In this document: positions 20,041 through 44,509 of the stretch, piece after piece
Numbering within the stretch: the stretch's first letter is position 1
How the letters are laid out: each line of letters begins with the position of its first letter
Sequence record: OZ035789.1
Strand: one strand, 5' to 3'
DNA length: 64,000 bases
Source of the DNA: Tequatrovirus BCH953P4
Translations under genes and position numbers: made by a program
Notes under the pieces: model-generated
Told to the model about the DNA's origin: nothing
The model's database searches: none
Seen by the model: only the letters and a program-made list of their open reading frames with translations

Positions 20041-21212
20041 TGAGTATGTTGCAACGCCCCGGATATCCAAATCTCAGCGTTAAATTATTTGATAGCTACG
20101 ACGCTTGGAGTAATAATAGATTTGTTGAATTAGCTGCTACTATTACCACATTAACTATGCGGGATTCTCTTTATGGACGAAATGAAGGAATGCTGCAGTT
20201 TTATGATTCTAAAAATATCCACACAAAAATGGATGGAAATGAAATAATTCAAATTTCTGTAGCTAATGCAAACGATATTAATAATGTTAAAACACGAATT
20301 TATGGATGCAAGCATTTTTCCGTGTCAGTAGATTCAAAAGGCGATAACATCATTGCTATTGAATTGGGAACTATTCATTCTATAGAAAATCTTAAATTTG
20401 GTAGACCATTTTTCCCTGATGCAGGTGAATCTATAAAAGAAATGCTTGGCGTCATTTATCAGGATCGCACATTATTAACTCCAGCAATAAATGCTATAAA
20501 TGCTTATGTTCCTGATATTCCATGGACTAGCACATTTGAAAACTATTTGTCATATGTAAGAGAAGTTGCTCTAGCTGTAGGAAGCGACAAATTTGTATTT
20601 GTGTGGCAAGACATCATGGGAGTTAACATGATGGACTATGATATGATGATAAATCAAGAACCATATCCAATGATTGTCGGTGAGCCGTCTTTAATAGGTC
20701 AATTCATCCAAGAATTAAAATATCCATTAGCATATGATTTCGTTTGGTTGACTAAATCGAATCCTTACAAACGTGACCCAATGAAAAATGCTACTATCTA
20801 TGCGCATTCATTTTTAGATTCTTCATTGCCAATGATTACTACAGGAAAGGGTGAAAACTCTATTGTAGTGTCAAGGTCAGGTGCTTATTCTGAAATGACT
20901 TATAGGAATGGATATGAAGAAGCTATTCGTCTTCAAACTATGGCACAATATGACGGCTATGCTAAATGTTCTACTGTCGGTAATTTTAACTTGACTCCTG
21001 GCGTTAAAATTATTTTTAATGATAGTAAAAACCAATTTAAAACAGAATTTTACGTTGATGAAGTTATCCATGAATTATCCAATAATAATTCAGTAACTCA
21101 TCTATATATGTTCACTAATGCAACGAAACTGGAAACAATAGACCCAGTTAAGGTTAAAAATGAATTTAAATCTGATACTACCACTGAAGAAAGTAGTTCT
21201 TCCAATAAGTAA
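20040..21212 (+). CDS. 27: Baseplate hub protein gp27
   Basis: 390 aa, synteny. Confidence 0.92.
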
Positions 21213-25530: not shown

Positions 25531-25534
25531 CAAT

Positions 25535-25552
25535 GGGGACCTTTCGGTCCCC
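25535..25552. terminator. Bidirectional hairpin GGGGACC-TTTC-GGTCCCC
   Basis: perfect 7-bp GC stem with tetraloop and flanking T-run, between gene 54 (+) and minus-strand operon. Confidence 0.6.
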
Positions 25553-25558
25553 ATATTT

Positions 25559-25849
25559 TTATTTACGGAATGAAATAAAAGCAGCAACTGAAGCAACTAA
25601 ACTGTCTTCAATATAAACCTCAATTTTTACCGGAGCTTCTGACTCAAATTTACCTGTTACTACACCTTGGAAAATACTTTCAGTCTGTTCTGGCTTTGAA
25701 AAATTTTCAGAAGGAAAAATTCCGAACTTTTTATCTGTTCCAAAAATTTTGATAAATTCATCGTAAACTGCTTCATTAAAAGCATTATCAGCAGGAATAA
25801 CGCCTTCAACTACAAGTTCTTGACCTAAAAAGCGCAAAGAAGATTTCAT
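25559..25849 (-). CDS. Hypothetical protein (T4 alt.-3 position)
   Basis: 96 aa ORF; preceded by the repeated promoter/hairpin cassette. Confidence 0.65.
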   Translation of the reverse strand: MKSSLRFLGQELVVEGVIPADNAFNEAVYDEFIKIFGTDKKFGIFPSENFSKPEQTESIFQGVVTGKFESEAPVKIEVYIEDSLVASVAAFISFRK

Positions 25850-25854
25850 TTTGT

Positions 25855-25910
25855 GTTCCTCATGTTATGTCAGTAAGATTACTATAACACAACACGAGGG
25901 ACTTGTAAAC
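25855..25910 (-). promoter_or_regulatory. Repeated promoter/hairpin cassette, copy 1
   Basis: coding strand GTTTAC-N17-TATAGT with 13-bp inverted repeat whose 3' arm contains the GAGG Shine-Dalgarno; 50/53 identical to copy at 41657..41712. Confidence 0.55.
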
Positions 25911-27967
25911 TACATTTTGAACTTTTTAGACATTCCGTTGATGTTAACCAAAGAAGCTAAGATTTGAGAAACTTCGTTTTCCTCTTCTTTTGATTCTTCT
26001 ACAAGGAATTGATTAAATCCAGTCATTGGACGAACTTCACCAGTTTCCATCAAATGATCGCCATCATATACTGATTCCTCTAATTGTTCAGAAGGAGGAA
26101 CGATTGTACCTTCGATTAGATACTTGTTATAAGCAGTTTCTTTCATAAAGTACGTACTTACTTTATTAATCTTCAGTAAAATTCCACGCGGTAGAATAAC
26201 TTCAGCTTCTGATGGAAATCCTGTTAAATGACCTGGAACGATAACTTTGATTCGCTCAGCTCCTTTAATTACCATACCCACGCTAGTTTCAGCATTTTCA
26301 TTAGCGTATGTAGAATGACTACCCATATGCATCAAATCTTCTGCATCAACGGAACCTTCTCCTTCACCAGAAAATACTGCGCCGGAATCATCTAGAGCCA
26401 TATAGTTTTTACCATGCTCACCGAAGATATTTGGTTTAAGCGATGTAGATACGAAGTTCTTGAAATAGAACATTTTGTTTTCAATGTTATGACGCAAAGT
26501 TTTAAAGGTAACTTCTTGTCCACGGTAAAGTGTAGTTCCTGGAGGAAGAACTGAACCTTTAGCGAATGCAGAATCCAACGTCTCGATATGCTTAATAGCA
26601 CGTTCCATATATTCTTCGCGGGTAGAATCAGGTTTACCCAAAAGGAATGAGTTCATTTCAACATATGAATCTGCACAATAATCTTCAATTACATCAGATT
26701 CAGCTTGAGTTAATCCTTTTGGAGTTACTTCAGTACTTGCATATTCATATGCCTGGGTAGCAGATTCATTAATCAATTTATAAATGCCATTCATTACAAA
26801 TTGAATAATAGCTGTCTTTTCATCTGGCGTAGCTTTAGAACCTTTAACCAAATCATTGATAATTTTCTTAATAACATCAAAGCTGTTAGAAATATTAATA
26901 TCAGCAAGATCGCTTAAAATTTTATCAGTTTTATAATCAAAGAATTCTTTATTTTTTAAATATTCTTGAGAACCTTGATACGATATATCGCTCTGCAACT
27001 TGATGGATGGATCACGTAAACGTGCATGGGCTAATGCAATATGATTTCGGAAGTTTTCTAGTTCATAATCGTTAGATTTAAAACGAGAAGCACTTCTCAT
27101 ACCACCGATAGCTCCTTTGCTGAAGTTTGAACCAATCTGAATAACGCCAGAGTTCATTGGTCCTTCTGCTTTATATACCGGAACTTTAGATTCAAACTCT
27201 TGATATTTCTTGGCAGCGAAGCTATCACCCTGAAGTGAAGCATCAACAGTAGAATATTGAGCTTGTGCTGCTAATCGACGACTAATTTTAGTTTTCTGAA
27301 TAACAGCTTGATCCGTGCGCTTATCATTTTCTAAAGCAATAGAAGCAGCAACAGCGACAGCTTTAGGAACAGCATTTCCTGTTTTAACGTCTACATAAAC
27401 ATCACCAACCTTTGATTCAACTTTTGTGAATAACTCAGTTGAAATAGGAGGTACACCTGGAATGTCTTCTAAATTGGCATTTTTACGGTAAACCATAATA
27501 TATGCATACTTTTTATCATAGTCCCAGATTTCCTTTAAAAGAACATATCGACCTGCTCCTTTGGTACGTACTAAACGGTCAGCAATAACTTGCATTTGAC
27601 GAGCAGCGCCATTTGTTTTACTCTTTAGTACACGGAATAAGCACGCGTCAATTTTATACTGCTTCATTGTTTGAAGAGCAGTATCAAAAACAGCATTAAT
27701 GACGCCAATTGGATTTCCACCCAAGTTTCTAAGCTTAACCAGTGATAATTTCTCGTTGACACCTATCATTACGATATGCATCATTTTATCGCCCGGCTTA
27801 ACGTTTTTATTTGTATCACCACCGGAGGTGTATGTACAAAATCTAAATCCAGGAAGCACGCTTTCTTCGCCGGCTTGAATAGCAAAAATTTGAGGTATTT
27901 TATGCTTAGGATTTAAGTTAACAACCGGCGCCGAAGCGCCGTCAAATAATTCTGTAATAAGTTCCAT
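25910..27967 (-). CDS. Alt-like ADP-ribosyltransferase paralog (full length)
   Basis: 685 aa; N-terminus MELITELFD...NLNPK.KIPQIF and R-S-ExE motifs (YRGQ, FVSTSL, EAEV) shared with Alt; divergent middle. Confidence 0.8.
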   Translation of the reverse strand: MELITELFDGASAPVVNLNPKHKIPQIFAIQAGEESVLPGFRFCTYTSGGDTNKNVKPGDKMMHIVMIGVNEKLSLVKLRNLGGNPIGVINAVFDTALQTMKQYKIDACLFRVLKSKTNGAARQMQVIADRLVRTKGAGRYVLLKEIWDYDKKYAYIMVYRKNANLEDIPGVPPISTELFTKVESKVGDVYVDVKTGNAVPKAVAVAASIALENDKRTDQAVIQKTKISRRLAAQAQYSTVDASLQGDSFAAKKYQEFESKVPVYKAEGPMNSGVIQIGSNFSKGAIGGMRSASRFKSNDYELENFRNHIALAHARLRDPSIKLQSDISYQGSQEYLKNKEFFDYKTDKILSDLADINISNSFDVIKKIINDLVKGSKATPDEKTAIIQFVMNGIYKLINESATQAYEYASTEVTPKGLTQAESDVIEDYCADSYVEMNSFLLGKPDSTREEYMERAIKHIETLDSAFAKGSVLPPGTTLYRGQEVTFKTLRHNIENKMFYFKNFVSTSLKPNIFGEHGKNYMALDDSGAVFSGEGEGSVDAEDLMHMGSHSTYANENAETSVGMVIKGAERIKVIVPGHLTGFPSEAEVILPRGILLKINKVSTYFMKETAYNKYLIEGTIVPPSEQLEESVYDGDHLMETGEVRPMTGFNQFLVEESKEEENEVSQILASLVNINGMSKKFKM

Positions 27968-27970
27968 GAT

Positions 27971-30019
27971 TTATCCTTGAACGAACTTGTAAGGCATGTT
28001 TGTAATATCTATGCAAGACGCAATAATTCCAAGAGATGATTCTACTTTCTGTTTAACATTTGATGAAACAAATGATGCAAAGTCAACTCTATCTTCTATA
28101 TCACCTGTCATTGTAACCAATTCACCAGTTTCCATTAAATGGTCTCCGTCATAGATTACCGATTCGGTGAGTTCTTCTGTGGTCATAACTTCAGCTTGAA
28201 TAAGCTTGTTGTTAGTTTTAACTGTTCCATCATTGTAAGATGCATCGGTTATTTTATTAACTTTGACCATTAATCCACGTGGCAAAATGACTTCCATTTC
28301 ATTTGAAGGCGCTAAACTTCCACCGGGTAAAACAACATTGACCTTATCAGCCCCAGTAATAACCCATCCAATTCCAACTAAATTATCGCTAGAATTTACT
28401 AGTCCTTCATCAGTTTTATCAATAGAAACACTTAGACGCTTTTCGTCTGGTAAAACACCTATAGATGAATCAGTCATCCAAGTACCAAAAATATTTGGAT
28501 ATAATGATGTTGACACAAAGTTTCTAAAATAAAAAACTCGATTTTTTACCATTGCTTCATATATTGAAGGTAACATTCGTTGTGAACGATACAAAGTAAT
28601 ACCTTTTGGTAATCGTTCACCATTTTTAAAGGCTGAATCTAAATTATCAATGGCTTGTTCTATTTCAGGTGCTGTTAAAATACTTGTACGCTCATCTGGA
28701 TTATATAATCCCAAAAGAGCATTATTCATGTCTACGTATCCTGAACCTACATATTCACGAATTCCGCGTTTTTGCGCTGGTGTGTATTTAGATGAATCTT
28801 TATTTTCGACTATAGGATGTAATGACCATCCAGCGGTAAGAGCATATCCACGTAATTCTCTTCGAATAATCTTTGTTTTTATTGCATTCCAAGAATTTTG
28901 TACTAACTCATTTGCAGCATCTTGGTTTAAATGCGAATGTTTGTTAATATTTCTTTCAAACCAAGCACCTTTATATTTTTCTAAAGTATCATCGACGATA
29001 GAAGCAATAGTTTCTAAAGTTTTTATTGAAGTAATAGATTCTTTTCGTAATTTTTCTAAAGCTTTATTTTTTATTTCTGCATTAATAATGGATTCTTTAT
29101 CTTCAGGAATTATAGAAGCTTCTCTGAATGCCATCCCAGCTGTAATACTGCTAAGAGCATTCTCTAGTGCAAATCCTGAAGTAGAAATTACCGTTAATTC
29201 ATTAGAATCAGAAATTAAAGGCGCGTCCGCTGGTTTATTTAATTCTGCCGCTGAAGCCTCAAATTTTTGAAACATCGGTGTTTCAAATCTAGAAGATTCC
29301 AATGACTGACTTTGTGCAATTGCTCTACGGGAAATTTTAACTTTAACGATTACAGCTTGGTCAGAACGTTTATCATTTTCTTGTGCAATAGATGCTGCAA
29401 TTGCCTCATTTTTAGTTACTTGAGCTCCAGTATCTTTATTGATATAAACATCACCGACCTTCGATTCAACTTTAGTAAAGAGCTCGGTACTAATTTCCGG
29501 AACTCCTGGAATGTCTTCTAGTGATACATTTTTGCGATGTATAAGAATATATGCATACTTTTTATCGTAATCCCAGAGTTCCTTAAGAAGGACGTATCTG
29601 CCACCTGAACGACTACGGATAAGTCTATCAGCAATAACTTGAATTTGTCGAGCTTGACCAGCGGTTTTAGACTTAAGAATACGAAGCATACAAGCATCAA
29701 TTTTATACTGGCGCATTGTTTGCATTGCAACAGTAAAAACTGAATTGATATAATTAATTGGGCTTGGACCAAGACCTTTTAATTTAGCAATTGAACCTTT
29801 AGCAGTTAATGTAAAAGGAACAATATGCATCATTTTATCGCCCATCTTTAAATCGCGATTAGTATCACCTCCAGATGTATAGGTGCATAAACGAAAGCCT
29901 GGTTGTTCAATTGCATCATCAACATGAACTGAAAAAATTTGCGGTATTTTCTTCTTTGGATTTAAGTTTGTAATCGGAAGAGTAGTATCTTCGTCAAATA
30001 ATTCTGTAATAAGTTCCAT
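27971..30019 (-). CDS. alt: Alt ADP-ribosyltransferase
   Basis: 682 aa from second Met; matches T4 Alt as remembered; motifs YRSQ, FVSTSL, EMEV. Confidence 0.9.
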   Translation of the reverse strand: MELITELFDEDTTLPITNLNPKKKIPQIFSVHVDDAIEQPGFRLCTYTSGGDTNRDLKMGDKMMHIVPFTLTAKGSIAKLKGLGPSPINYINSVFTVAMQTMRQYKIDACMLRILKSKTAGQARQIQVIADRLIRSRSGGRYVLLKELWDYDKKYAYILIHRKNVSLEDIPGVPEISTELFTKVESKVGDVYINKDTGAQVTKNEAIAASIAQENDKRSDQAVIVKVKISRRAIAQSQSLESSRFETPMFQKFEASAAELNKPADAPLISDSNELTVISTSGFALENALSSITAGMAFREASIIPEDKESIINAEIKNKALEKLRKESITSIKTLETIASIVDDTLEKYKGAWFERNINKHSHLNQDAANELVQNSWNAIKTKIIRRELRGYALTAGWSLHPIVENKDSSKYTPAQKRGIREYVGSGYVDMNNALLGLYNPDERTSILTAPEIEQAIDNLDSAFKNGERLPKGITLYRSQRMLPSIYEAMVKNRVFYFRNFVSTSLYPNIFGTWMTDSSIGVLPDEKRLSVSIDKTDEGLVNSSDNLVGIGWVITGADKVNVVLPGGSLAPSNEMEVILPRGLMVKVNKITDASYNDGTVKTNNKLIQAEVMTTEELTESVIYDGDHLMETGELVTMTGDIEDRVDFASFVSSNVKQKVESSLGIIASCIDITNMPYKFVQG

Positions 30020-30042
30020 CATAGCCTCTCTAGTGTTTATTC

Positions 30043-30050
30043 TATTTATA
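30043..30050 (-). promoter_or_regulatory. Late promoter TATAAATA for alt
   Basis: minus-strand TATAAATA ~22 nt upstream of alt ATG. Confidence 0.6.
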
Positions 30051-30055
30051 AAATT

Positions 30056-30073
30056 AAAGGCCCGAAGGCCTTT
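30056..30073. terminator. Hairpin AAAGGCC-CGAA-GGCCTTT
   Basis: perfect stem with tetraloop between gene 30 operon and alt. Confidence 0.5.
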
Positions 30074-30260
30074 AATAATCTAGTGGTAAGAGAGTACGAT
30101 ATATTTCAAACTTTGGACCTTTTTCATAAGCATCAAAAGTTTCTGTGAATTTATTATAAGCATATGCATCGATAAATTCAATCATGATTTGTGATACAGA
30201 AGTAGAAACATCTCCACCTTCTTTTTGAGCCACGACAATTGTTTCTAAGTAAGCTTTCAT
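30072..30260 (-). CDS. Hypothetical small protein between gene 30 and alt
   Basis: 62 aa; start overlaps gene 30 stop. Confidence 0.45.
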   Translation of the reverse strand: MKAYLETIVVAQKEGGDVSTSVSQIMIEFIDAYAYNKFTETFDAYEKGPKFEIYRTLLPLDY

Positions 30261-31720
30261 AGACCAGTTACCTCATGAAAATCACCAAATACATCCTCGA
30301 ATGTATTAGCTTTCATTTTATCTTCACGTAAACGAATCGCAATCGGAAGAAATAATTTAACGTAATCAGTACGGCCATCAGATTTTAACCAACCGTTGCA
30401 TTCGCACTCTAGAATTTTTCCAATATAATAATTTTGGTTTTCCATAATGCGAGTACGGTCAAGTTCATGTGATTTTACGCCGGCTTTATCTTTTAAGCCT
30501 GAACCAGCATTTACTTTAATTTTTCCACACTCTGATTCAAGAATAAATCCACCTGCTTTAGTAGGGTCTTTACGGTGAGGATAAATTCCTACAATTTTTA
30601 AATCAACATCAATTACTTCTTTAAATTTATAGAGATTTTTTGAACGAGCATTTTCCCATAATCCATCGATATTTTTGAGAATAATACCTTCAAGACCTTG
30701 GTCAATATACTTTTTATAAATTACCTTAGCTTCATCTAGGTTATTTACTACCTGGTTTTCAATTAAAATTACTTTATCATAACCTGATGTCATTTGTTCT
30801 AGTTTAGAAAAACGTACATCATACTTTAAACGAAATGCAGGAAGATCGTATATTTCTACCAACGGGACATAATCCCAGACCTGAAACTTCATGCATTGAG
30901 CTTCTTTTTCAGAAATGGTTCCCTTTAAAGATTTATTGGCGATGCCATTAGATGCAGTACGTGATTCAGCTACTTCTGTGAAGTCTTTAACTTTGCTGTT
31001 TTCAGGATGAGCATCAAAAAGAAAATCTAGGCCTTCTGGCTCCTTTTTAACTTGCTCATGGTATACCAATTCGCCATCAATTAACACGCCTTCTGGATGA
31101 ATCTGGCGGGCTTCAGCGGTCATTTTGATTAATTCTTCCTTAAGAAGATCTAATCCTAGATATTCATTACCAGCTCGTGATAAAAGACGAACATCATCTA
31201 ATTCATCACCTCTGACTTCGGCAAAGCACCGAGCCCCATCAGCTTTTAACTGGGCAAAGGCTGGAAATTTGATATTCTTATTAATGCCTTTTTCATCATA
31301 AGAACTTGCAAGCATTTGAGGTTGTTCAGGAATTAAACCTGGCCAAACTTTGTTTGCAATAGATACTGAAGCACCACATTCAAGGTCTCGCATCATCACT
31401 CGACGCAAAACTTCAACATCATCTTTTTTACCATCGGTGATATATCCAGTTAATTCCTCAATTGCTGCATTTCCAGTCAATTTCCGAGTAGCTAATGTGA
31501 ATTCAATGAAGTCAAGCATATCGGTAAGAGTCAACATTCCAAAACTCTGGGTAGCAATACCAGGTTTAGGCCATTTCTTGATATAATACTGCAACCCACG
31601 AGAATAAGTCAGACGATATACTCGTTTAAGCAATTCATTATCTTTATTCTTTTCAAGAATTGCTTGCTTCTGCTTAGTTGAACCAATAGATGCTATTTCG
31701 TTCAGAATTTTAAGAATCAT
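30257..31720 (-). CDS. 30: DNA ligase gp30
   Basis: 487 aa; adenylation motif KADGAR. Confidence 0.95.
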   Translation of the reverse strand: MILKILNEIASIGSTKQKQAILEKNKDNELLKRVYRLTYSRGLQYYIKKWPKPGIATQSFGMLTLTDMLDFIEFTLATRKLTGNAAIEELTGYITDGKKDDVEVLRRVMMRDLECGASVSIANKVWPGLIPEQPQMLASSYDEKGINKNIKFPAFAQLKADGARCFAEVRGDELDDVRLLSRAGNEYLGLDLLKEELIKMTAEARQIHPEGVLIDGELVYHEQVKKEPEGLDFLFDAHPENSKVKDFTEVAESRTASNGIANKSLKGTISEKEAQCMKFQVWDYVPLVEIYDLPAFRLKYDVRFSKLEQMTSGYDKVILIENQVVNNLDEAKVIYKKYIDQGLEGIILKNIDGLWENARSKNLYKFKEVIDVDLKIVGIYPHRKDPTKAGGFILESECGKIKVNAGSGLKDKAGVKSHELDRTRIMENQNYYIGKILECECNGWLKSDGRTDYVKLFLPIAIRLREDKMKANTFEDVFGDFHEVTGL

Positions 31721-34430: not shown

Positions 34431-34434
34431 ACAA

Positions 34435-34767: not shown

Positions 34768-34854
34768 TTTATTCTCCTTTGTTTGTGTAAGATAATACTA
34801 TCACAAAGGAACCGTACTGTAAACAACTTTGTGCAATCTTTGGAAAATAAAAAA

Positions 34855-40807: not shown

Positions 40808-41157
40808 TTAGAAAGGTCCTGGATGTCTTCTGCGAACTTGTTGAAGGAGTTGTTGATTTGTTTTTCAACCAATCCTGGCTTATGAGCCACCACATCCGCC
40901 TTCTTTGCGTCTTTGCGCAGCTTTTCATTTTCACGCTCAATTGCAGCAATTGATTCACGATTTTTATTATTCATTGCATCAATATAATTATATTGATTTT
41001 TTAAATCATTTAATGCTAAGGCGTTTTCATTGGCCGTTTTTGTAATTTCTACAACAGACGTTTCTAATCTTTCAATTTTATTTTTTAAAATTAAAGAAGT
41101 TCCGCCCAATGCAATTACAATTAATAACAAGCCTGCTGTCGTATTACTTACATGCAT
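40804..41157 (-). CDS. Putative i-spanin
   Basis: 117 aa; N-terminal transmembrane helix AGLLLIVIALGGTSLIL followed by coiled-coil-like region. Confidence 0.7.
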   Translation of the reverse strand: MHVSNTTAGLLLIVIALGGTSLILKNKIERLETSVVEITKTANENALALNDLKNQYNYIDAMNNKNRESIAAIERENEKLRKDAKKADVVAHKPGLVEKQINNSFNKFAEDIQDLSK

Positions 41158-41654
41158 AAAGTTTTAATAACCTCTATAATATCGTCTTGAGAAAGACCGT
41201 TAATTAAAATATGATGTTCAGCCGGAGATTTAGAAATTTTAAAGCATGCCTCAACATCTTCTGCCATATCCGATGCACTACGATTTGGATTACTAATTCC
41301 AAGACGATGCTTTCCCGTCAAAGGATTAACGATGATATAGCATTTACAGCTATTGATATGAACATTAGGTTGAGTCTGATTAATGAACACTTCGCAATCA
41401 TACTTAGCGAGTTGATTTTCTAAAAAGACTTTCATCTCCTCAACCGCATCAGGAAGCATATCACGGGCTTGCTCAAGACGACGATTTCGATATTCTTTAA
41501 TGGTCGTTTTCCGCTTAACTTGCTTAGCTAAATCTTTCTTAAGATCGGTGATATATCCAACTCGACGATTTCCTTTGAATACAGAAATCCCATCTGTAGT
41601 ATCACCGTATGCTTCAACGACCATTTCAGTAGTAATAAGCTGTAAATCCATCAT
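41148..41654 (-). CDS. alc: Putative Alc (inhibitor of host transcription)
   Basis: 168 aa; position between spanin pair and rnlA as in T4. Confidence 0.6.
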   Translation of the reverse strand: MMDLQLITTEMVVEAYGDTTDGISVFKGNRRVGYITDLKKDLAKQVKRKTTIKEYRNRRLEQARDMLPDAVEEMKVFLENQLAKYDCEVFINQTQPNVHINSCKCYIIVNPLTGKHRLGISNPNRSASDMAEDVEACFKISKSPAEHHILINGLSQDDIIEVIKTLCM

Positions 41655-41656
41655 AA

Positions 41657-41712
41657 AGTCCTCATGTTATGTCAGTAAGACTACTGTAACACAACATGAG
41701 GGACTTGTAAAC
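41657..41712 (-). promoter_or_regulatory. Repeated promoter/hairpin cassette, copy 2
   Basis: GTTTAC motif plus 13-bp inverted repeat covering GAGG RBS of alc; near-identical to 25855..25910. Confidence 0.55.
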
Positions 41713-41715
41713 AGC

Positions 41716-43303
<1,588 letters not shown>

Positions 43304-43330: not shown

Positions 43331-44509
43331 TTAAAAATATTTTTTAAAACTCATCATAACTTTATCATCAACATCATTATCAATCTGTGCTACAAGATAA
43401 GATGACAGTTCTACTTCTTGTGGCGCGGATTGAACATTATCAGAATTAAGATATTCACGAATCCAAGGATACGGATGTTTAACCGGAGCATCGGTAATTG
43501 GGCATGGAAGACCACACTGTTTCATACGAGATACAGTTAAGTAATCAATAAAGCTCCACATGCTATTTGTATTTAATCCAGGAACATCGCCGTCTTTAAA
43601 TAAATGAACTGCCCAATCTTTTTCTTGGCGGTTAACTTCCATGAAAATATCAACTGCTTCTTGTTCACACTCTTGAGCAATTTTAACCCATTCATCGCCA
43701 TCAGTACCAGATTGAAGTTGACGAATAATATATTGAGTGCCTTTAAGGTGAAGCTGCTCATCACGTGCAATGAACTTCATAATTTTGGCATTACCTTCCA
43801 TGATTTCCATGTTTTTATGGAAGTTAAAGGTACATGCGAAAGATACATAAAAACGAATAGCTTCCAATGCGTTGATTACATGCAAACAGAGGTAAAGAGA
43901 TTTCATTAGCTCATGCTTCCAATATGTCTCATGCTCAATAGCATCTTCAATAACGTCTTCGTCTGCATTAATTTCTTTTTGGTATTCGATATCAGCTTTA
44001 GCGTTTTCCCAATAACGAGTTTTAATCAGAACATCATCATAATAACGTCCAATGGATTCAGCACGTTTCATAATAGCTTCATCTAATACAATTTCATCAA
44101 ATACCTTCGATGGATCAGTATAAAGATTTCGCATGATATGTGTGTATGAACGGCTGTGAATAGTTTCACTAAAAGTCCACGTAGCAACCCATGTATCAAG
44201 GCTTGGGTCTGAAATTAATGACATAAGTACAGCAGACGGCGCACGACCCTGAATGCTATCCAAAAGTGATTGATATTTCAGATTATTAGTAAAAATATTT
44301 TGCTGATACTGAGGAAGCTTATTAAACTGTGCAGCATCCATCATCAAGTTTACTTCTTCAGGACGCCAAAAAAATGATAAAGATTTCTCAATAAGTTCTT
44401 CAAATACTCTATGTCGTTGAATATCATATCGAGCTAAACCCAATCCAGAACCAAAAAACATCGGCTCAGTCAAAATATTAACAGGGGATGTATTAAAAAC
44501 TGTACTCAT
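43331..44509 (-). CDS. nrdB: Ribonucleotide reductase small subunit, uninterrupted
   Basis: 392 aa continuous ORF; no intron. Confidence 0.93.
   Translation of the reverse strand: MSTVFNTSPVNILTEPMFFGSGLGLARYDIQRHRVFEELIEKSLSFFWRPEEVNLMMDAAQFNKLPQYQQNIFTNNLKYQSLLDSIQGRAPSAVLMSLISDPSLDTWVATWTFSETIHSRSYTHIMRNLYTDPSKVFDEIVLDEAIMKRAESIGRYYDDVLIKTRYWENAKADIEYQKEINADEDVIEDAIEHETYWKHELMKSLYLCLHVINALEAIRFYVSFACTFNFHKNMEIMEGNAKIMKFIARDEQLHLKGTQYIIRQLQSGTDGDEWVKIAQECEQEAVDIFMEVNRQEKDWAVHLFKDGDVPGLNTNSMWSFIDYLTVSRMKQCGLPCPITDAPVKHPYPWIREYLNSDNVQSAPQEVELSSYLVAQIDNDVDDKVMMSFKKYF

Follow-up and report, generated by a model that had tools for sequence, protein, structure and literature searches.

An early promoter and a Shine-Dalgarno-pairing hairpin combined in a 54-nt cassette upstream of alc and alt.-3 in Tequatrovirus BCH953P4: a candidate early-only translational gate

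The space between rnlA and alc in the genome of Tequatrovirus BCH953P4 raises the question of what a noncoding element of about fifty nucleotides (nt) does there, and why it recurs almost unchanged in front of a second gene, alt.-3. In T4, Alc halts transcription of the host on DNA that contains cytosine. The element was analysed in a window of 64,000 nt of sequence record OZ035789.1, in which it and its flanking genes lie on the minus strand; an original prediction made from the letters of that window had described it as a promoter/hairpin cassette present at two loci. Our analysis leaves little doubt that the element is a real, selected early-promoter/hairpin cassette. The best explanation of what it does, and one that we hold to be reasonably probable, is early-only translational gating, in which promoter and hairpin act as one composite unit.

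A promoter and a hairpin in one repeat

The unit upstream of alc (copy 2, 41659-41712, minus strand; GTTTACAAGTCCCTCATGTTGTGTTACAGTAGTCTTACTGACATAACATGAGGA when read from 41712 to 41659) lies between the rnlA stop codon (41716-41718) and two adjacent alc ATGs (41654 and 41651), as had been claimed. Pairwise alignment matched it without gaps to a second unit on the same strand, 25910..25857 (copy 1, 25857-25910), with 51 of the 54 positions identical. A repeat finder returned the same pair at 94% identity and 15,802 nt apart, and a degenerate 53-mer matched exactly these two sites in the window and nothing in 100 shuffles. The limits of homology are sharp, GTTTAC at the 5' end and GAGGA at the 3' end, and the flanks of the two copies are unrelated, so that the repeat is indeed noncoding and does not belong to a larger coding segment that has been duplicated. 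Copy 1 begins on the last base of the stop codon (25910-25912) of the second alt paralog and ends 8 nt ahead of the ATG (25849) of the gene that it serves, a homologue of alt.-3 recognized by Pfam (DUF5498) and from annotated relatives (96 amino acids (aa); 25559..25849, minus strand).

T4 early promoters have a -35 element GTTTAC(A), a TGn-extended -10 region with the hexamer TAnnnT and A/T-rich upstream DNA (PMC2988021). The -35 hexamer of copy 2, TTTACA (41706..41711, minus strand; GTTTACA with G41712), is of this type and is followed, after a 17-nt spacer, by an extended -10 (41683..41691, minus strand) made up of TGT (41691-41689) and TACAGT (41688-41683), the latter being TATAGT in T4. 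Copy 1 has TTTACA (25909-25904), a 17-nt spacer, TG and TATAGT (25886-25881). Both copies combine a GTTTAC(A/T)-type -35 with a spacer in the 16-18 nt range, a TGn and a TAnnnT -10, and GTTTACA was invariant across all alc-upstream regions compared. A-rich tracts are visible upstream of the -35, within coding sequence (AAAAATTATAAAAAATTTAT in copy 2, at about -35 to -55, and AAAAAGTTCAAAATGTA in copy 1). From sigma-70 geometry, transcription is predicted to start in copy 2 at an A at 41676 (minus strand; 7 nt past the -10, plus or minus 2 nt; T4 equivalent at about 136,300 of NC_000866) and in copy 1 at about 25874. The alt.-3 copy is annotated as a predicted early promoter in Yersinia phage fPS-65, and a promoter feature lies under the alc copy in the annotation of fPS-90. 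What supports the assignment as a putative promoter is the T4-specific consensus together with conservation and the RNA class.

Other promoter classes were considered and rejected for the cassette. No late-promoter motif (TATAAATA) was found in or near either copy. As to a middle promoter, the sequence shows no visible TGCTT MotA box, and the stretch from PI-TevIII, in the nrdB intron, to Pcd contains no listed T4 middle promoter.

The hairpin is laid across this promoter. Its core, as originally described, is a contiguous stem of 13 bp (41701-41689 with 41660-41672; 12 Watson-Crick pairs and one G.U), and its 3' arm contains GAGG (41663-41660), 5 nt ahead of the first alc ATG and 8 nt ahead of the second. 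The hairpin of copy 2 proved to be longer than that, with a 5-bp apical helix past a two-base bulge, formed by the TA of the -10 hexamer, and four pairs below a bulged C. The 5' arm (41689..41706, minus strand) consists of the core 41701-41689, the bulged C at 41702 and the four additional paired bases at 41706-41703, and it lies in the promoter spacer, upstream of the predicted start site. The apical helix (41686-41682 with 41673-41677) and its tetraloop (41681-41678) together span 41673..41686 on the minus strand and hold most of the -10 hexamer and the predicted start. The 3' arm (41656..41672, minus strand; core 41672-41660, extension 41659-41656) would be present in all alc transcripts, and the Shine-Dalgarno (SD) sequence GAGG of alc within it (41660..41663, minus strand) is predicted to be fully paired in read-through RNA. 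Both copies have the lower 5' arm wholly inside the -35/-10 interval and the SD within the 3' arm (for copy 1: 5' arm 25899-25887, 3' arm 25870-25858, SD 25861-25858).

Because the 5' arm lies between -35 and -10, transcripts from the cassette's own promoter would lack it, and because the predicted start site falls between the two arms, the hairpin could form on read-through RNA only. This position of the start site, which was absent from the original prediction, is likely the key to the mechanism. Read-through RNA was predicted to fold at -25.6 kcal/mol (z = -6.8) in copy 2 and at -23.0 kcal/mol (z = -5.7) in copy 1; the corresponding values for RNA beginning at the predicted start were only -3.2 and -2.2 kcal/mol. 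Ensemble calculations put the cost of opening the region from SD to AUG at 14.7 (copy 2) and 12.2 (copy 1) kcal/mol in read-through RNA carrying 150 nt of the upstream gene, and at 3.6 and 2.0 kcal/mol in RNA from the predicted start. The predicted probability that the SD is unpaired in read-through RNA was below 0.01.

Two further identities of the stem were examined and set aside. An intrinsic terminator would end in a U-run, which neither copy has (the tails are ACUUUAUGAUG in copy 2 and AACACAAAAUG in copy 1), and neither copy appeared in the terminator scan. A RegB site in the SD was rejected in that the Tequatrovirus SD is GAGG and not GGAG, although several other genera do have GGAG there. 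A search of Rfam 15 in E-value mode with 41400-42000 gave no match at the gathering score; two chance matches to miRNA precursors reached 18-19 bits, compared with gathering scores of 117-135.

Conservation of the pairing and history of the second copy

The region of the window is 95-99% identical to about 500 Tequatrovirus genomes, and T4 itself has both copies, upstream of alc and of alt.-3. A 71-nt query located 995 places in 498 phage records, all of them Tequatrovirus-like, with two places per genome except in partial records, and a pattern scan of IMG/VR returned only eight Tequatrovirus cassette loci and two unrelated chance matches. The match of 54 nt of the cassette, at 94% identity, in GenBank MG010123.1 (32 kb, named Staphylococcus phage SAJK-IND) suggests contamination or misassembly with T4-like DNA. 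Near-identity of orthologous copies is in itself no proof of selection because divergence within Tequatrovirus is low (95-99% in the flanking genes).

The original prediction had proposed a comparison with the orthologous intergenic regions of other T-even phages, and this comparison bore it out: upstream of alc the layout was kept in nine other lineages of the Straboviridae and the arms differed. The rnlA-alc spacer is about 55-65 nt long in most of the other genera compared. The shared layout runs from GTTTACA directly into an anti-SD arm, then TGn and the -10, a short gap, the SD arm, 3-8 nt and the ATG. The 5' and 3' arms are, respectively, TCTCCATTTGGTT and AACCAAATGGAGA in Karamvirus, TCTCCGTTT and AAACGGAGA in Gelderlandvirus, TCCTCATCAG and CTGATGAGGA in Jiaodavirus, TCTCCTCAT and ATGAGGAGA in Dhakavirus, TCTCCTCAG and CTGAGGAGA in the Cronus-like lineage, TCCTCATTTTGTTG and CAACAAAATGAGGA in the EcS1-like lineage, TCCTCATTTCGTT and AACGAAATGAGGA in Winklervirus, and, for the two Bragavirus entries, ACCTCTCATTTT and AAAATGAGAGGT (1) and CCTCTCGTTTTTG and CAAAAACGAGAGG (2). 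The alc-upstream folds of these lineages ranged from -15.6 to -25.4 kcal/mol with the SD paired; helix length (9-15 bp) and loops varied between genera.

When all 22 alc-upstream sequences were aligned with MAFFT, the 3' arms fell out of register between genera, and an alignment-free test of spacer:SD duplexes was used for that reason. Cognate duplexes had a mean of -20.1 kcal/mol, compared with -10.4 kcal/mol for non-cognate ones, and one of 100,000 permutations was as good. Pairs were counted in the 13 sequences, from five lineages, that MAFFT kept in register: 87.9% of cells pair, as opposed to 31-54% with the partners slid by 1-3 columns, and the count is lowered by four Jiaodavirus rows that are shifted by one column above pair 6. 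Four pairs are altered on both sides (18 cells) in this alignment, and the covariation score was 0.278, compared with 0.149 +/- 0.022 in shuffles, none of the 500 reaching 0.278. SD and anti-SD variants switch together, GGAGA occurring with TCTCC and GAGGA with TCCTC. The 24 folds, read on the sense strand, contain 24 G.U and 428 Watson-Crick pairs, and sense-strand G.U pairs are as expected for structure in the sense RNA. This cross-genus covariation shows the hairpin to be under selection. Selection or recent duplication had been offered as the meaning of the repeat; the first is supported by the compensatory changes in the arms across nine other lineages, and a very recent duplication is contradicted by the presence of both copies in about 500 Tequatrovirus records.

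Beyond these lineages, Gaprivervirus has an additional open reading frame (ORF) between rnlA and alc. The distant alc homologues of Acinetobacter phage 133 and Aeromonas phage Aes012 stand in a different context, with no clear GTTTACA promoter. Acinetobacter phage 133 has alc after pseT.2 and not after rnlA, and a hairpin there, AGTCCTCA...TGAGGACT, holds the SD and is followed by TTTTT (about 255-290 of the compared region); this putative SD-sequestering stem also looks like a terminator.

The alt.-3 copy has a different distribution. Upstream of alt.-3, Dhaka-, Mosig-, Marfa-, Gelderland- and Karamvirus have a different early promoter with a small hairpin wholly inside the spacer (e.g., CACCACAAGGATGTGGT), and no SD pairing was found upstream of alt.-3 in these genera; among the genera sampled, the alc-type cassette was found at alt.-3 only in Tequatrovirus. 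The alc copy appears to be ancestral, and the alt.-3 copy to have taken the place of an ordinary early promoter within the Tequatrovirus lineage. Both promoter types possess the motifs at the shared ends, GTTTACA and ACATGAGGA, a feature that would suit replacement by recombination. The mini-hairpin in the -35/-10 spacer of the alt.-3 promoters of other genera reads CACCACA.GGATGTGGT, with variants (about 340-400 of the compared regions). The Mosigvirus alc promoter resembles this mini-hairpin type rather than the alc type, and in different genera the exchange of loci between the two promoter types may have gone both ways.

Paired copies were gathered from GenBank records genome by genome. The consensus of the two loci was identical in the 11 Tequatrovirus genomes in which both copies were read. 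Rare variants were found in both copies of one genome in UFV11 (two sites), BF15 (one) and ZCEC14 (one), and T2 shares one more. Because these rare variants are common to both copies within one genome, they point to gene conversion between copies 13-16 kb apart, by which the copies would be kept alike, at least partly, and would still be undergoing homogenization. The five lower-stem substitutions within Tequatrovirus all preserve the pairing: C becomes U where it faces G, and where the partner is U either G becomes A or A becomes G. One apical pair varies among U.G, C-G and U-A. The sole disruptive change within the genus, from TATAGT to the consensus TATAAT, falls in the apical helix.

Translational gating and its alternatives

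Early-only gating would depend on the cassette having one function as DNA and another as RNA. As DNA it would be a strong T4-type sigma-70 early promoter, with GTTTACA, a 17-bp spacer containing TGn, and TAYAGT. As RNA, the spacer would encode an anti-SD arm, CCUCRUGUUGUGU, that pairs with the segment holding GAGG. Transcripts started at the cassette would have no 5' arm and an open ribosome-binding site. Transcripts arriving from upstream, namely early and middle nrd-denA-rnlA RNAs in the case of alc and the late RNA of the alt operon in that of alt.-3, would carry both arms and form a hairpin of -23 to -26 kcal/mol on which ribosomes would be unable to load. The predicted outcome is that synthesis of Alc and Alt.-3 is limited to the period of early-promoter activity and that their coding sequences are later transcribed as passengers. 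What we infer here is where exactly transcription starts, that translation is blocked in vivo, and how the phage benefits.

The arrangement of promoters and terminators at both loci was examined for sources of such read-through. The terminator scan found no terminator-like site between nrdB and alc on the minus strand, and of the middle promoters listed for T4 the nearest ones upstream of alc are PI-TevIII, PnrdB and PnrdA, with none between them and alc. At the other locus, a late-promoter motif TATAAATA (30043..30050, minus strand) lies 20 nt upstream of the first alt gene, and the next terminator-like structure on that strand is a bidirectional hairpin after alt.-3 and gene 54 (25533..25554), which is an annotated terminator in fPS-65 and the probable end of alt-alt.-3 transcripts. 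Because the late promoter precedes alt and the next terminator comes only after alt.-3, a late alt transcript should carry alt.-3 at its 3' end and cross copy 1. The late-promoter motif itself directly follows a terminator-like hairpin, AAAGGCCTTCGGGCCTTT, and AATTT (30043-30095, minus strand), and this segment looks like a clean terminator-then-late-promoter junction that opens the alt operon.

Time-course data for T4 assign early RNA and early protein to alc and alt.-3, early RNA and late protein to rnlA, middle RNA and late protein to denA and alt, and middle RNA, with the protein class not assigned, to alt.-1 and alt.-2 (PMC9697503, supplements 4 and 6). These data agree with a switch in expression class located precisely at each of the two cassettes. 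The T4 class switch at alc and alt.-3, the fit to T4 early promoters and the promoter annotations of relatives together uphold the description of the element as a promoter/hairpin regulatory cassette.

If early-only gating is correct, it would contribute in a simple way to the shut-off of early proteins. Confinement of Alc synthesis to the first minutes of infection would matter given the role of Alc against host transcription. The cassette would be a natural example of DNA under a double constraint, as promoter spacer and as anti-SD, and of an entire timing module that was copied onto a second gene and is held uniform through gene conversion. Its practical uses would be as a recognizable unit in the annotation of T4-like genomes and as a 54-bp early-only part for phage engineers. 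A broader proposal, which we put forward tentatively and consider rather less likely to hold, is that the Tevenvirinae carry a conserved, portable class of immediate-early-only gates and that the alc gate was copied in Tequatrovirus onto alt.-3, at the 3' end of the late alt operon. On that proposal, a single recombination event with a 54-bp module would pass both the transcriptional and the translational timing on to another gene, and part of the sharp stop in the synthesis of some early proteins, which reviews credit to promoter shut-off and RegB, would have a physical basis.

Several observations weigh against early-only gating. The translational block is a thermodynamic prediction, and a generic promoter scan was not enriched over shuffles at either cassette region. 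Only 6-14 nt separate the upstream stop codon from the stem, and a terminating ribosome that frayed the base of the stem could permit some coupled translation. Four other GTTTAC-type early promoters in the window (34431, 34823, 38405 and 51365, all on the minus strand) have a spacer complementary to the stretch transcribed first, and the resulting hairpins straddle the -10 and would be confined to read-through RNA. The arm UUCCUUUGU at 34823 pairs with ACAAAGGAG, including the SD (AAGGAG), at -15.4 kcal/mol (z = -3.4); the hairpins at 34431 (-19.4 kcal/mol, z = -5.3), 38405 and 51365 leave the SD free. The straddling hairpin may thus serve a broader function, SD pairing being an addition to it. 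SD sequestration upstream of alc is also not universal because three groups depart from the pattern: Mosigvirus is without SD pairing there, and in Tegunavirus and Providencia phage PSTCR6 a promoter-straddling hairpin ends 5-7 nt short of the SD. Literature searches returned no mapped T4 start site at alc and no account of this hairpin; an earlier description is possible, the main T4 genome review lying outside the search.

The main rival, which we judge unlikely, is that the cassette is an insulator of the type described for PeSLs (early promoters with stem-loops), in which the stem-loop would attenuate or terminate upstream transcription, the embedded promoter would restart it and the pairing of the SD would be incidental. 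Early-promoter stem-loops of RB49 and phi1 are commonly placed between -35 and -10 or over the -10, and one of them cut lacZ about as a strong terminator does (PMC2839356). The straddling hairpins without SD pairing at other early promoters of the window, and those of Tegunavirus and PSTCR6 that stop ahead of the SD, also speak for an insulator. A terminator, however, does not predict that the SD should lie inside the 3' arm upstream of alc in ten lineages, Tequatrovirus included, or that the anti-SD should track the SD variant. Neither stem is followed by a U-run or was reported by the terminator scan, and in other genera the sequence after the stem is A-rich. Moreover, the downstream genes pseT and pseT.3 have no listed middle promoter of their own and so probably depend in part on read-through.

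An element of RNA processing or stability, either a nuclease target of the RNase III type or a protective stem at the 3' end of the rnlA or alt mRNA, is improbable. The long, near-perfect helix, which measures about 22 bp and directly follows a stop codon, would suit such a role, and mRNA decay and processing in T4 are extensive (PMC3014915). The arms covary, but helix length and shape differ between genera, the Tequatrovirus version has no GGAG RegB site, and the constant partnership of the SD in the pairing would be left unexplained.

Translational coupling, in which translation of alc and alt.-3 on polycistronic RNA would not be silenced and would depend on upstream ribosomes melting the stem, is marginally less probable again. 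The constant proximity between the stem and the upstream stop codon is in its favour. The core stem begins 14 nt past the rnlA stop (41716 to 41701) and 10 nt past the alt-paralog stop (25910 to 25899), and, as judged from the geometry of the ribosome footprint, no more than the first one or two pairs would be within reach of a ribosome at termination. The protein classes also differ across the junction, rnlA and alt being late and alc and alt.-3 early.

It is harder still to credit a role at the level of DNA, as an operator for a dimeric repressor, as a cruciform in promoter shut-off or as a mere substrate for recombination that does nothing as RNA. What causes the shut-off of early promoters is described as not completely understood (PMC3014915), the rare variants found in both copies show that the cassettes recombine, and PeSLs have been proposed as recombination sites (PMC2839356, PMC4122927). 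The arms, however, differ between genera and between promoters of one genome, which excludes a single sequence-specific binding protein; the sense-strand G.U pairs would be mismatches in DNA or in antisense RNA; and compensatory change reflects selection on pairing and not on homology alone. A neutral leftover of duplication, with the hairpin and SD pairing arising by chance, draws on the low divergence of Tequatrovirus noted above and is strongly disfavoured by fold z-scores of -5.7 to -6.8, by the same architecture with covarying arms in nine further lineages and by the pairing-compatible nature of all lower-stem substitutions.

Neighbouring genes and comparison with known systems

The gene downstream of copy 2 was identified as alc by Pfam (PF17527, ALC, 2e-92) and occupies 41148..41654 on the minus strand as an ORF of 167 or 168 aa, depending on which ATG is used. 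In UFV11 the first ATG of the pair reads ATA (about 20063-20071 of the UFV11 sequence) and T4 annotates the second, and for these reasons the second ATG (41651) is probably the real start and the 168-aa version of the ORF list one codon too long. Upstream of copy 2, the longest ORF containing rnlA (RNA ligase 1, identified from annotated relatives and T4) has 386 aa and extends over 41716..42876 on the minus strand; its real start is probably an internal ATG about 36 nt downstream of 42876, T4 annotating 1125 nt. A 28-nt direct match (25 of 28 identical) between 41532-41559, in the 5' part of alc, and 31421-31448, inside a large ORF at 30257-31720 that is probably DNA ligase, may be due to chance or to a short shared peptide (GYITD.KKD).

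The second alt paralog, upstream of copy 1, is full length (685 aa; 25910..27967, minus strand) and has an ADP-ribosyltransferase domain according to Pfam. It is one of two full-length alt paralogs arranged in tandem at 25910-30022 (minus strand; 683 and 685 aa), with about 70% DNA identity in places. T4 has a single alt and the remnants alt.-1 and alt.-2, which the T4 record calls an old duplication of the start of alt. In BCH953P4, nrdB (43331-44509, minus strand) is one uninterrupted ORF of 392 aa, and T4 nrdB is joined from two pieces; BCH953P4 therefore appears to be without the nrdB intron and I-TevIII.

The promoter half of the cassette is an ordinary member of the T4 early-promoter (Pe) class, already predicted in the annotation of at least one relative. 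It shares with that class (PMC2988021) the -35, TGn and -10 pattern, and the genes served are early in T4 omics data; the A-rich tracts noted above may correspond to the A/T-rich upstream DNA of the class. In contrast to the class as a whole, the two promoters share 51-54 of 54 positions, far in excess of the class consensus, and their spacer would be constrained by RNA pairing rather than by contacts with RNA polymerase.

Taken as a whole, the unit overlaps in concept with the PeSLs (Arbiol et al., 2010, PMC2839356; Comeau et al., 2014, PMC4122927). Like PeSLs, it is intergenic and unites an early promoter with a stem-loop, an SD and a start codon, and the stem-loop of RB49 and phi1 PeSLs often lies between -35 and -10 or over the -10. 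Dispersed PeSL copies recombine, and recombination of the cassette is suggested by the variants common to both copies and by the other promoter type found at alt.-3 elsewhere. PeSL stem-loops, however, have been read and tested as terminators or attenuators, whereas the cassette stem has no U-run and its 3' arm is the SD; in the PST/T4 pair, PeSL stem-loops are described just upstream of the promoter. PeSLs occur in many copies flanking ORFans in hyperplastic regions, whereas the cassette occurs in exactly two, fixed beside the conserved genes alc and alt.-3, and its alc copy is kept in position across genera with covarying arms.

The closest functional counterparts are the T4 genes e, soc, 49 and I-TevI, in which a late promoter inside an SD-hiding hairpin leads to late-only translation; I-TevII and I-TevIII, mobE of Aeh1 and segB have been reviewed with such hairpins as well, and alc and alt.-3 are not listed among the hairpin-controlled genes in that review (PMC3014915). 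In those systems, and by prediction in the cassette, the SD and/or the AUG is paired in long transcripts, the promoter lies in or next to the DNA of the 5' arm, and the promoter's own transcripts lack the arm and are translated; in both, the element directly follows an upstream gene that is transcribed at another time. As in a promoter-in-hairpin timer, the SD of the cassette is placed by prediction in a stable helix on transcripts initiated upstream, with covariation in support, and the predicted start of the internal promoter lies downstream of the 5' arm. The 5' arm of the cassette fills the -35/-10 spacer, and its translational block is predicted. The promoters of e, soc, 49 and I-TevI are late (TATAAATA) and translation is late-only, whereas that of the cassette is an early sigma-70 promoter and translation is predicted to be early-only; because of this difference in promoter the timing is reversed. 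T4 is the textbook example of hairpins that hold translation back until its late promoters are active. If early-only gating holds, the cassette is the T4 hairpin device turned around, with the gene switched off translationally while its RNA is still made. Apart from promoter type, the unit agrees with the functional definition drawn from e, soc, 49 and I-TevI and involves no new principle.

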